Shown in pieces: positions 42,171-47,326 of a stretch of DNA of 64,000 nt. The stretch comes from Pseudomonadales bacterium (GTDB lineage Bacteria > Pseudomonadota > Gammaproteobacteria > Pseudomonadales > Azotimanducaceae). The notes beneath the pieces are model-generated. The model made no database searches, was not told where the DNA came from, and worked only from the letters and a program-made list of their open reading frames with translations. The DNA lies in contig OZ253942.1 of the NCBI GenBank assembly GCA_965267195.1, positions 3,270,310-3,334,309 on the forward strand. Direction: 5' to 3'. How positions within the stretch are numbered: position 1 is the first letter of the stretch; each line of letters starts with the position of its first letter. The translations under genes and the position numbers were made by a program.

Positions 42171-42764
42171 TCAGTTGCGAAACTTCTTCGCTAGCCAGTA
42201 GTCAACGCTGACGTATCGACCACCGCCCAGGAAAAACAGCGCCAGCAACATGATGAAGTAGGTTGCGGCGAATTCGATTCCGTTGTTCAGCACAACAAAG
42301 CTGCCGTTCTCGGTAAGCCAGCTGTAGTTACCATGTTCCCTGAGAATGTCTTTTGCGCGATCCAAGCGATCTATAGCGCCTATCGTTCTGTCGGTTGCGA
42401 AAATACCGCTGCCGGTTGAGATCGCCAGCCAGCCGTTATGCCAGTGAGCAGTGAACATAGCGACCAGCATGGTGAACATCAGTGGAATCGAAATCCAGCG
42501 AGTCGCAAAACCCAGTACCAACAGAAAAGCGCCAACTAGCTCCGCGCTGGTGGCCAGAAATGCCATCAGCCAGGGCATGGGGAGACCCAGGCCCCAGTCC
42601 GGATTACCGAACCACGCAACGGTGTTCTCGAATCCGTTGTACTTGTTGATACCCGCCATATAAAACACCGGAGCCAAATAAGCACGGAGTAACAGTGGCG
42701 CAATAAAGTCAGCTTTGAATGTCAGTTCCAGCCAATCCTGGAATTTGTTGATCAATGCAATCAT
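42171..42764 (-). CDS. DoxX-family integral membrane protein, last gene of the MNIO operon (BufD/HvfX-like position)
   Basis: 197 aa with ~4 TM segments and a DoxX-like pattern. Lies 15 nt downstream of the DUF2063 gene on the same strand. Confidence 0.8.
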   Translation of the reverse strand: MIALINKFQDWLELTFKADFIAPLLLRAYLAPVFYMAGINKYNGFENTVAWFGNPDWGLGLPMPWLMAFLATSAELVGAFLLVLGFATRWISIPLMFTMLVAMFTAHWHNGWLAISTGSGIFATDRTIGAIDRLDRAKDILREHGNYSWLTENGSFVVLNNGIEFAATYFIMLLALFFLGGGRYVSVDYWLAKKFRN

Positions 42765-42779: not shown

Positions 42780-43517
42780 CTAGTTGAAGGTAAATACTCT
42801 GTATTGGTTAAAAGACTGAATCAGAGCTAATCCGTTACGCACAAACTCATCTTTTTCTTGTACGCCGAATTCATCAGCTTTCTCCTGCAGCCAATCAGCA
42901 GGTACTAACCCCTCTGTCTGCTGCATGTCATTGAGCAGATGAAATGCAAGGGGTTGTAACTCGAAGAATCTCACCGACTCATCCGGGATCCTGCAGACCA
43001 GCAGATAGGTCGGAGTGTCGCCCGGTGCAGTTGGCTGGAATTCCGGACTGATTCGATGGACCGGATAGTTGTAAGCGAGTGGTTGTGCCAGGGGGCTAAG
43101 ACTTAGCTGCAGATGTCCAATGTCACCTTCGAGTTCATCCGGTTGCTCTTCGTCCATGGTGAATAGCGCAAGTTCAACCCACTCATAATGCGCCAGCTCT
43201 GTCAGATAGTCGGGCAGATCAGCGCTTAACTGTGCATGCGCCAGGTATTCCACGAATTCCCCGGATAGCGCCATGAAATAGGGTGTTTGGGATTCGTGTG
43301 AAATAAAGAAATTACGAACCATGACCTGCCAGGCATCGTCGGAAACGATGCTTTTGATCACTGGAAAGAAGTCACCCAGTAATGAGGAAACGTTGTTAAA
43401 AATGAGTTCTGAATAAACGCCCATGCGTCGCTCATCGAGCCCTTCAGGAACGGGTACATGGTCCGGATCTCTCAGGTGTTCGGTGAACGCTTTTTGTAGT
43501 TTTGTCAGTTCACCCAT
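42780..43517 (-). CDS. DUF2063-family MNIO partner protein (MbnC/BufC/HvfC-like)
   Basis: 245 aa. The N-terminal LQKAFTEHLRDP...RMGVYSELIFNNVSSLLGDFFPV is typical of DUF2063. Starts 5 nt after the DUF692 gene. Confidence 0.8.
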   Translation of the reverse strand: MGELTKLQKAFTEHLRDPDHVPVPEGLDERRMGVYSELIFNNVSSLLGDFFPVIKSIVSDDAWQVMVRNFFISHESQTPYFMALSGEFVEYLAHAQLSADLPDYLTELAHYEWVELALFTMDEEQPDELEGDIGHLQLSLSPLAQPLAYNYPVHRISPEFQPTAPGDTPTYLLVCRIPDESVRFFELQPLAFHLLNDMQQTEGLVPADWLQEKADEFGVQEKDEFVRNGLALIQSFNQYRVFTFN

Positions 43518-43522
43518 ATCTG

Positions 43523-44356
43523 TCAGTCCTGGCAGGCCGATTGCCTCTGCTTGATCATGTCGACTTCAAGCAACAGGGTTTCGAGACTGGGGATATTGAA
43601 ATCTCGCTCGAGTAGCGTCGGTCGATCGCCGATCAGTGCATAGGTCTCCTCGAGCAGTGACCAGACAGGATCAATGACATCAGCGCCATGGGTATCGACA
43701 ATCAGACCATCGTCTTCGACGTAATGTCCTGCGATGTGCAGGTAACTGATTCGGTCAGCGGGCATCGCACGAATGAAGTCCATCGGTTCACCACCATGAT
43801 TCACGCTGTTGACGTAAACATTGTTCACGTCCAGCAGTAGATCACAGTCAGCTTCTTCTATGACAGCACGCACAAACTCGGCTTCCTCGAGTTCGCGTTT
43901 TGGTGTCAGGTAGTAAGACACATTTTCCAGCGCCATTCGTTCGCCGATGATGTCTTGAACACGTTTTACCCTATCTGCGGTATAGGTGACCGCTTCTTCG
44001 GTAAACGGCATCGGGAGTAGATCATAGAGCTGACCACCGTCGTTGGTGTAAGACAGATGTTCGCTGTAGATGGCGACATTATGTTTCTGGATGAAGTCCC
44101 TGGTGTCCGTGACTAGCTGCTCATCAAGCGGGGCAGGTCCCCCGATCGATAGTGATAAGCCGTGACATACGATCTGTTTTTGCTCACTGATCTCGCGAAG
44201 TTGTCGACCCAGTCGACCGCCAAGACCAATCCAGTTTTCGGGAGCCAGCTCAAAAAAATCGACGGATTCAGGGATGCCGTTCGTCAGGAGCTCTGGTGTC
44301 ATGGAACGACGCAGGCCAATGCCAGCGCCAGAAACAGGGTGAATATGTGAGTGCAT
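43523..44356 (-). CDS. DUF692-family multinuclear non-heme iron oxidase (MNIO; MbnB/BufB/HvfB-like)
   Basis: 277 aa. Family motifs are present in order: GIGLR, HGLSLSIGG, SEHLS, LLPMPFT, ALENVS, LLLDVNNVYVN, HIAGH, IVDTHG, TLLERD. Together they cover the TIM-barrel metal ligands. Confidence 0.88.
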   Translation of the reverse strand: MHSHIHPVSGAGIGLRRSMTPELLTNGIPESVDFFELAPENWIGLGGRLGRQLREISEQKQIVCHGLSLSIGGPAPLDEQLVTDTRDFIQKHNVAIYSEHLSYTNDGGQLYDLLPMPFTEEAVTYTADRVKRVQDIIGERMALENVSYYLTPKRELEEAEFVRAVIEEADCDLLLDVNNVYVNSVNHGGEPMDFIRAMPADRISYLHIAGHYVEDDGLIVDTHGADVIDPVWSLLEETYALIGDRPTLLERDFNIPSLETLLLEVDMIKQRQSACQD

Positions 44357-44369
44357 GGGGGAAAGGAAA

Positions 44370-44394
44370 CGGTCCCTGCCTAGGGCAGGGACCG
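44370..44394 (-). promoter_or_regulatory. intercistronic stem-loop between precursor and MNIO genes
   Basis: Perfect 11-bp GC-rich inverted repeat CGGTCCCTGCC / GGCAGGGACCG with a 3-nt centre. On the minus strand it is followed by TTTCCTTTCCCCC and then the MNIO ATG. Confidence 0.6.
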
Positions 44395-44429
44395 TAGGGT
44401 TACAACATTATGGTTTGATGTAATTGAGG

Positions 44430-44816
44430 TTAAGCAGCGCCGCCGCACTTACCTTCACCACACTTACCTTCGCCGCCAGCTTTCTCGCCGCCGCACTTGC
44501 CTTCACCACATTTGCCTTCGCCGCACTTACCTTCGCCTCCAGCTTTTTCGCCGCCGCATTTGCCTTCACCGCATTTGCCTTCGCCGCACTTGCCTTCGCC
44601 TTCAGCTTTTTCGCCGCCGCACTTACCTTCGCCGCATTTGCCTTCACCACACTTGCCTTCGCCGTGGCCACCGGCAACCTGCATGTAGCCGCCCTGGAGT
44701 TCAGTCATACCGAATGGGTTGGTGTCCGCAATGGCCATGGGCGACAGCGCCAGGCTAGCTCCAAGAGCGGTACCAACTGCGATGGAAAGGGTCTTCTTTG
44801 TGTTCTTGGGTGTCAT
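44430..44816 (-). CDS. secreted Cys-rich repeat precursor (11 x EGKCG), putative MNIO substrate / metallophore protein (HvfA-like)
   Basis: 128 aa. GAGGA sits 8 nt before the ATG. The Sec signal is MTPKNTKKTLSIAVGTALGASLALSPMAIA|D. All 11 Cys lie in EGKCG units, and the gene lies immediately upstream of the DUF692 gene. Confidence 0.85.
   Translation of the reverse strand: MTPKNTKKTLSIAVGTALGASLALSPMAIADTNPFGMTELQGGYMQVAGGHGEGKCGEGKCGEGKCGGEKAEGEGKCGEGKCGEGKCGGEKAGGEGKCGEGKCGEGKCGGEKAGGEGKCGEGKCGGAA
44442..44660 (-). repeat. in-frame nested tandem repeat (15-nt EGKCG unit inside a 63-nt 3-unit+linker period)
   Basis: The layout is 3+3+3+2 EGKCG units separated by GEKAEG / GEKAGG linkers. 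The units differ only at synonymous third positions (GGC/GGT, TGC/TGT, AAG/AAA). Confidence 0.95.
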
Positions 44817-45044
44817 GTAAAACGTCCTCTAGTTGATTTGTCCGCCGATACCACTCCTGGTAAGTCGGCCAGCTTTCATACAGATCAGTTAATGATCCTG
44901 TGTAATAAGACCTGTCATATGGACAGATGGTTTCATAGAGAAAACCACGATCGAAACGTTACAGCAATCTGCGAAAAACTGGTATGGCTGAACGTCTGGT
45001 TCAGGGAGGATTCAGTTTGAGGGACGTTTTGTAAGGATCTACTT

Positions 45045-45082
45045 ACAAAAAAGGCCGCAACCATACTGGATGGCGCGGCCTT
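45045..45082 (-). terminator. Rho-independent terminator of the EF-G paralog gene
   Basis: On the minus strand AAGGCCGC...GCGGCCTT forms the stem, with an inner CCAT/ATGG extension. TTTTTTG follows, 20 nt after the stop at 45102. Confidence 0.8.
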
Positions 45083-45101
45083 CATTGAGAGCTTTGCTGG
45101 G

Positions 45102-47183
<2,082 letters not shown>

Positions 47184-47326
47184 CACAATGGCTCGTGTCT
47201 AAGTTCATTTCATATGTTCGGGTAGTCCAGGGAGACCCTGGCGAGGGGGCCAAAAACACCGAAATTCAGGTGTTTTCGCGCGCGCATCATATATCAACGC
47301 CCAGTCATGTTCCAGATGGGTTTCTT

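Follow-up and report, generated by a model that had tools for sequence, protein, structure and literature searches.

A gene whose product carries eleven identical EGKCG pentapeptides, nested within a longer repeat, raises two questions: what kind of protein it encodes, and how so regular an array arose and is kept. We addressed both for positions 44442-44660 (minus strand) of a 64,000-nucleotide stretch of Pseudomonadales DNA, hereafter the window. The reading that we favour, and consider very probable, is that this segment encodes the core of a RiPP metallophore precursor of the HvfA family (oxazolin / Buf_EGKCG / captophorin), whose gene belongs to an hvfA-hvfB-hvfC-hvfX operon, and that its nested repeat results from the birth and death of copies under purifying selection.

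The precursor gene and its operon

All four genes of the operon (Table 1) exceed the cut-offs of their own NCBIfam models. The precursor scores 62.9 bits, in three stretches, against NF050137 (KCGExKCG_twice, the HvfA family; cut-off 19.5), and 40.3 bits, below the cut-off of 95, against NF050188, the equivalog model for HvfA (the H. influenzae orthologue). Judged by these scores, it is a member of the HvfA family (in captophorin terms, the Lys-Cys group) and not an orthologue of HvfA. HvfB falls below the cut-offs of both the BufB model (261, below 310) and the MbnB model (50.9, below 325), and among solved structures the nearest are 3bww (HvfB) and 3dee (HvfC). The original prediction, made from the sequence without database searches, was that an MNIO/DUF2063 pair acts on a RiPP precursor core; the Pfam and NCBIfam matches to the neighbouring genes bear this out. 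No copper-responsive regulator or copper gene adjoins the hvf operon.

Table 1. Features of the hvf operon and of its repeat-bearing precursor gene, in window coordinates
Feature	Coordinates	Strand	Basis or remark
hvfX, DoxX-family membrane protein	42171..42764	-	Pfam DoxX; NF050144 243.4 bits, cut-off 80
hvfC, DUF2063 + RRE partner	42780..43517	-	Pfam DUF2063 + NGO1945_C; NF050145 263.3 bits, cut-off 142; PDB 3dee E = 8.8e-8
hvfB, MNIO (DUF692) maturase	43523..44356	-	Pfam MbnB_TglH_ChrH E = 1e-99; NF003818 411.9 bits, cut-off 360; PDB 3bww E = 1.6e-72
12-bp GC-rich hairpin, then UUUCCUUUCC (U/C-rich tail), between hvfA and hvfB	44369..44395	-	-27.3 kcal/mol, z = -6.35
hvfA-family precursor gene, 128 aa: signal peptide, conserved N segment, EGKCG repeat core	44430..44816	-	ORF, NF050137 match, termini like those of relatives
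Terminal cassette, (EGKCG)2 + GAA + stop	44430..44471	-	2/42 nt differ from the L002 terminal cassette
Higher-order repeat 3, (EGKCG)3 + GEKAGG	44472..44534	-	92.1% identical to repeat 2, 85.7% to repeat 1
Higher-order repeat 2, (EGKCG)3 + GEKAGG	44535..44597	-	90.5% identical to repeat 1
Higher-order repeat 1, (EGKCG)3 + GEKAEG	44598..44660	-	Units 1-2 + linker nucleotide-identical to L001 cassette 1
Post-signal segment DTNPFGMTELQGGYMQVAGGHG, aa 31-52, NPF..L..GY motif + single His	44661..44726	-	Conserved among homologues
Predicted Sec signal peptide, aa 1-30, Lys-rich n-region + hydrophobic core + AIA|D cleavage site	44727..44816	-	Read from sequence pattern

The nearest genomes, MAGs from uncultured marine Pseudomonadales (OM182 and 'Candidatus Azotimanducaceae'), have in common the gene order EF-G-like, hvfA, hvfB, hvfC, hvfX, ychF, and the synteny matches that at L081 (related loci carry L numbers throughout). 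The EF-G-like GTPase (694 aa; 45102-47186, minus strand) lies immediately upstream of hvfA, an adjacency conserved in L081. Inspection by eye places a GGCCGC...GCGGCC hairpin and a T-run after its stop codon at window positions ~45046-45080 (minus strand), though the terminator scan missed this hairpin, whose loop is too long for the scan; its presence suggests that the hvf operon is transcribed on its own. An AGAGGA Shine-Dalgarno sequence, also found by eye, stands upstream of the hvfA ATG. The sigma-70 promoter scan upstream of hvfA returned no site, and Rfam gave no match on 44300-45150 and hence no known riboswitch in the 5' UTR.

A second hairpin, between hvfA and hvfB, occurs at the same place but with a different sequence in L001-L005, L007 and L012, with compensatory changes at 6/10 pairs. 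It is likely an intra-operon attenuator or a stabiliser of the precursor mRNA that sets the precursor-to-enzyme ratio.

The predicted product of the 387-nt hvfA gene reads MTPKNTKKTLSIAVGTALGASLALSPMAIA|DTNPFGMTELQGGYMQVAGGHG-(EGKCG)3-GEKAEG-(EGKCG)3-GEKAGG-(EGKCG)3-GEKAGG-(EGKCG)2-GAA*. Its 11 identical EGKCG units are grouped 3+3+3+2 and run exactly from 44660 down to 44442; with the GEKA(E/G)G linkers between groups, a 15-nt unit is nested in a 63-nt (21-residue) period. In Tandem Repeats Finder the 63-nt period came first (score 337; 3.5 copies matching at 89%, 0 indels), ahead of the 15-nt period (score 106, 69% matches). The mature core is composed of G, E, K, C and A only, plus one His. 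Translation thus agrees with the composition first proposed for the core, and translation and Tandem Repeats Finder together with a nested 3+3+3+2 array of units that differ only synonymously. The repeat also opens spurious ORFs (44424-45020, plus strand, 198 aa; 44408-44677, minus strand, 89 aa; 44497-44688, plus strand, 63 aa) that carry a risk of mis-annotation; we rejected these alternatives as repeat artefacts.

A PDB sequence search with the precursor gave no match. When the precursor sequence was modelled by AlphaFold2 with 22 homologues, the mean pLDDT was 45, the core stayed below 50 and no strands were formed. Lacking a confident fold for the core, this model does not reproduce the beta-helix published for members with 17-residue repeats.

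Ahead of the core, the predicted signal peptide, which takes the place of the classical cleaved leader, conforms to a family for which Sec signal peptides are known (PMC11252979, PMC12452194). Alanines of the AxA pattern at -5/-3 relative to the Asn of NPF, which would place cleavage two residues before NPF, are present in 95/118 and 107/118 homologues. The segment that follows bears the motif NPF-x3-[EQ]-L-x2-G-Y. Among homologues anchored on xPF, the Asn is kept in 112 of 118, the Leu in 105, the Gly in all 118 and the Tyr in 112. Across the signal-plus-leader region (the first ~50 codons), comparison with the nearest species, L001, gave a dN of 0.009 and a dS of 0.33. From this conservation, the leader segment would appear to have a constrained function, most plausibly engagement of HvfC.

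The segment had been put forward as a recognition element for the DUF2063/MNIO complex. The strong conservation of NPF..L..GY speaks for such a role, but a strict requirement is contradicted by published work. HvfA is modified completely even when its signal peptide and N region are removed (PMC11252979), and in a shortened FonA substrate every single Ala variant preceding the core was tolerated (PMC12668002); the leader is therefore not strictly required for modification. The group working on bufferins reports preliminary evidence that the signal peptide belongs to the recognition sequence (PMC12452194).

Selection on the pentapeptide

Differences between units are confined to four biallelic synonymous transition sites (GGC/GGT, AAG/AAA, TGC/TGT and GGC/GGT), and the GAA codon is invariant. 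The 11 units fall into seven nucleotide haplotypes with no non-synonymous change among them, and no two adjacent units are nucleotide-identical. Linking the seven haplotypes requires at least six substitutions, or at least four if units recombine, every one of them synonymous. Random substitutions in a unit would be synonymous in 9/45 cases (20%) and transitions in 5/15 (33%), so an all-synonymous outcome over four to six or more events exceeds what chance would give (p ~6e-5 to 1e-2, depending on assumptions).

The same constraint is seen across the family. At 987 Cys sites in precursor-selected homologues, the residues of the motif are kept at frequencies of.99 (E),.98 (G),.92 (K) and.99 (final G) around the Cys. 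In precursors chosen via a neighbouring HvfB, the corresponding values are E.90, G.70, K.43 (with S.26 and A.25 at the same position) and G.91. The EGKCG pentapeptide is, on this sequence evidence, under purifying selection. That part of the original prediction is upheld both by the absence of non-synonymous change among the 11 units and by the family-wide Cys context.

Copy number and age of the array

The nearest species, L001, whose HvfB is 96% identical in amino acids and whose leader is near-identical, has the layout 2+2+2+2. Its first cassette and linker match units 1-2 and linker 1 here nucleotide for nucleotide; the window has an extra third unit. Between L001 and the loci L081 and L082, hvfB is 99.76% identical at the nucleotide level and the leaders are identical. 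Exactly one 15-nt unit is missing from L081 and L082, where L001 has its only pair of neighbours with identical nucleotides. These genes (L001 3589-3927 versus L081 2501-2824 and L082 264-587) represent two forms from a near-clonal population, one 15-nt unit apart. Both forms recur in independent assemblies, the 112-aa one in 5 contigs and the 107-aa one in at least seven. An 80-aa 2+2 form with the same leader as the L001 and L081 forms lies on a 1,444-nt contig and is possibly an assembly collapse. L005 (3554-3934) and L083 (2100-2432) have 100% nucleotide-identical hvfB genes and carry three and two exact 48-nt cassettes, respectively – a difference that reflects either real unequal recombination or short-read assembly collapse.

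Arrays with nucleotide-identical neighbours gain or lose units between strains (L001/L081, L005/L083), whereas the window's array, with no exact repeat above 20 nt, would resist slippage. Its scrambled synonymous codons might then be more than a mark of age: filtered or selected, they could lock copy number and fix the 21-residue cassette, whose three heterocycles might form a distinct Cu(I) site. If true, this would be a tri-heterocycle site unlike the two-heterocycle site of the canonical 2-unit cassette. We find this idea doubtful.

The original prediction further held that selection keeps the 3+3+3+2 nesting itself. Taken to its full extent, each of the 11 sites would be preserved individually and the architecture conserved. 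The identity of 11 peptides despite diverged codons favours such a view, as do a first cassette nucleotide-identical to that of L001 and a last one nearly identical to that of L002. Exactly 3+3+3+2 also recurs in two of the 120 best protein hits (P0045 and P0057), with 3+3+3 in four others. However, the closest species has 2+2+2+2, and a single unit or cassette separates strains that are near-identical at hvfB. We took two censuses of architecture, one over the 120 best protein hits and one over 108 precursors chosen via neighbouring HvfB. Among the best protein hits, 2+2+2+2 is the commonest layout (23 proteins) and runs of at least three units occur in 58/120; in the HvfB-chosen census such runs occur in only 8/108. 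In the recurring 3+3+3(+2) proteins the leaders are unrelated, and each protein has uniform linkers that are specific to its lineage; judging from these sequences, unrelated lineages reached the layout independently.

The residues of the units also point to turnover. Sister lineages L002, L003, L004, L005 and L007 have cassettes in which EGSCG and EGKCG alternate, whereas the window and L001 are all Lys. Because a change from Ser (TCN) to Lys (AAR) takes two to three nucleotide changes, the all-Lys state implies turnover of whole cassettes (concerted evolution), which is at odds with a conserved architecture. We consider it unlikely that selection preserves the nesting: across the relatives compared, copy number and the grouping by threes are evolutionarily labile and not conserved. 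Change between 3+3+3+2 and 2+2+2+2 may have run in either direction.

The opposite possibility is that the array is young, having expanded recently by replication slippage, or that ongoing gene conversion keeps it uniform. Several features are consistent with this: the 63-nt period itself, with its high match rate and lack of indels, linkers that are alike within a protein and different between lineages, and exact duplicates in relatives, including the three identical 48-nt cassettes of L005 and the identical adjacent pair of L001. The window's array, however, has no identical neighbours, and its longest exact internal repeat is 20 nt. Its units differ by a mean of 1.96 nt in pairwise comparison. 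In hvfBCX, the divergence between the window and L001 corresponds to a dS of 0.54-0.63, and orthologous genes differ at 15-33% of their conserved E, G, K and C codons; 1.11 differences per unit would therefore be expected at the L001 split. Paralogous units are thus on average more diverged from one another than the window is from L001.

Arrays drawn randomly from codon usage had 2.66 ± 0.22 differences. The shortfall of the observed value arises partly because GAA is invariant (a Glu-Gly context bias), and by our estimate the bias-corrected expectation is ~2.1-2.3; the free synonymous sites are therefore near equilibrium. Five unit pairs are identical, versus ~3.6 expected by chance as estimated from site frequencies. 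Sharing a 63-nt phase does not make units more alike (1.93 differences, versus 1.98 between phases), and we rejected the 63-nt period as a record of recent duplication since phase leaves no signal. The AAG/AAA pattern alone hints at the phase (p ~0.02 by our estimate) and is not relied on.

We likewise rejected invariant GAA as a sign of homogenisation: in other genes of the window, GAA-GGN outnumbers GAG-GGN by 15:1. The presence of GAA in 11/11 units is a genome-wide context effect, and may reflect avoidance of intragenic Shine-Dalgarno-like GAGG.

A recent origin or continuing conversion is accordingly very unlikely, in agreement with the initial view that the array is not a product of recent slippage. 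The codon divergence indicates that the array is old: it appears to have been stable for so long that codon usage at its synonymous sites is close to equilibrium.

We find it scarcely credible that misassembly produced the repeat count, that the region is non-coding or that translation uses a different frame or the opposite strand: a low-complexity repeat does open ORFs in several frames and look-ups found no independent assembly of the exact protein, but the hvfA frame alone has the NCBIfam match, Shine-Dalgarno sequence, signal peptide, synteny and N- and C-termini common to relatives, variation between units is synonymous throughout in that frame, and exact internal repeats of at most 20 nt leave k-mer assembly unambiguous, making collapse or expansion of the array unlikely. 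Exact-protein look-ups were negative, and the searches turned up no second assembly of the species from which the window comes. In the same-species search of metagenome contigs, a degenerate leader pattern gave no match, and the best HvfB match was only 78% identical.

Returning to the birth and death of copies under purifying selection, we propose that slippage or unequal recombination built the nested repeat, adding and removing 15-nt units as well as cassettes of 48 or 63 nt. The resulting changes would be filtered by strong purifying selection on E-G-x-C-G. In this array, no exact repeat longer than 20 nt is left for further slippage. The array would then be an example of how RiPP cassette arrays evolve, with a motif frozen by selection and a copy number that drifts where neighbours are nucleotide-identical.

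Proposed maturation and relation to known systems

Published work on homologues suggests how the precursor may be processed. HvfBC modifies six Cys in the three AEGKCGEGKCG motifs of HvfA, yielding oxazolin, which binds Cu(I) (Manley et al. 2024, PMC11252979); the binding fits a ratio of about one Cu to two modified residues, and more than 3,000 homologues are known (PMC11252979). The modification, first described as an oxazolone/thioamide, has been reassigned to a 5-thiooxazole (PMC12668002; 10.64898/2026.06.05.730506). In homologues, conversion of each motif Cys to 5-thiooxazole entails a change of -4 Da and absorbance at ~305 nm (PMC11252979, PMC12668002, 10.64898/2026.06.05.730506). In FonA, a loss of 12 H from one tryptic fragment (residues 88-104) was read by the authors as 4 H per repeat with all three repeats modified; FonBC depends on the Cys and on a small residue in the next position, and position 3 tolerates A, R and T (PMC12668002).

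By analogy, we propose the following course. The precursor would be made in excess, helped by the hairpin after hvfA. HvfC would bind it and hand it to the iron enzyme HvfB, as in homologous systems, with the NPF..L..GY segment probably adding to HvfC binding. HvfB would then carry out a four-electron oxidation of each EGKCG Cys to 5-thiooxazole; for 11 sites, homology predicts a shift of -44 Da. The product would be exported by Sec, with the signal peptide cleaved at AIA|DT, and its heterocycles, again by homology, would bind Cu(I) at about one Cu per two heterocycles or in a looser network. The precursor of this uncultured marine Pseudomonadales bacterium (OM182 / Azotimanducaceae-like) is predicted to carry 11 copper-binding 5-thiooxazoles.

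Cu(I) binding has been shown for oxazolin and bulbicupramide, and Cu binding by mass spectrometry for gonophorin (PMC11252979, PMC12538549, PMC12668002). The physiological role is debatable: a homologous cluster in Microbulbifer was not expressed and gave no clear copper protection (PMC12538549).

The HvfA family has been described in papers since 2024, and the nested repeat, the variation in copy number and the enzymology are all already known; the precursor is an ordinary member of a recently described, very large family. The Buf_EGKCG/oxazolin group, as defined, comprises ~2,000 proteins of 31-506 aa, with up to 58 Cys in one (PMC12452194), and precursors among Microbulbifer strains are organised in cassettes with 5-8 Cys (PMC12538549). 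The suggestion that copy number acts as a dial for metal-binding stoichiometry fits this published range, from 5-8 Cys in Microbulbifer to a maximum of 58 in Pseudoalteromonas, though the idea is already in the literature. The locus bears on how metal-binding capacity is tuned in a widespread family and adds no new kind of system. Its main value lies in annotation: an ORF that could easily pass for a 'hypothetical low-complexity protein' is identified as the predicted substrate of an MNIO maturase.

Among the closest known parallels is HvfA/oxazolin of nontypeable Haemophilus influenzae (NTHI1441). Both precursors have a Sec signal peptide, an N segment of ~20 aa and then EGKCG motifs; both lie beside genes for an MNIO (HvfB), a DUF2063-RRE protein (HvfC) and a DoxX protein (HvfX), and the NCBIfam family model is matched. 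The motif Cys of HvfA are its modification sites, to which we liken the EGKCG Cys here by sequence. HvfA is 95 aa long and has three AEGKCGEGKCG cassettes, six modified Cys and two N-region Cys in a disulfide, whereas the window's precursor has 11 Cys arranged 3+3+3+2 and none in the N region.

FonA/fontiphorin of Fontimonas thermophila (the 'captophorin' class, PMC12668002) shares the EGKCG 5-mers and the combination of an MNIO with a DUF2063-type (PME1) partner. It has seven modification sites, each repeat losing 4 H, in contrast to 11 sites, three triple cassettes and different linkers here. Type-1 Buf_EGKCG/oxazolin precursors (PMC12452194) and Microbulbifer MmrA/bulbicupramide (PMC12538549) resemble the window's precursor in having a signal peptide, a conserved leader and a variable number of cassettes, and their clusters include MNIO and DUF2063 genes, with or without DoxX. 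The type-1 repeat spans 17 residues with two EGKCG motifs and is predicted to form a beta-helix with its Cys facing inward; the repeat here spans 21 residues and has three motifs. More distantly, bufferins (BufA1 DUF2282, BufA2) and methanobactin (MbnA/MbnBC) share an MNIO, Cys-derived heterocycles and copper binding – the last two by homology in the present case – and bufferins have a signal peptide, a DUF2063 partner and DoxX in common with it. The precursor folds and motifs of bufferins and methanobactin differ from those of the EGKCG array.
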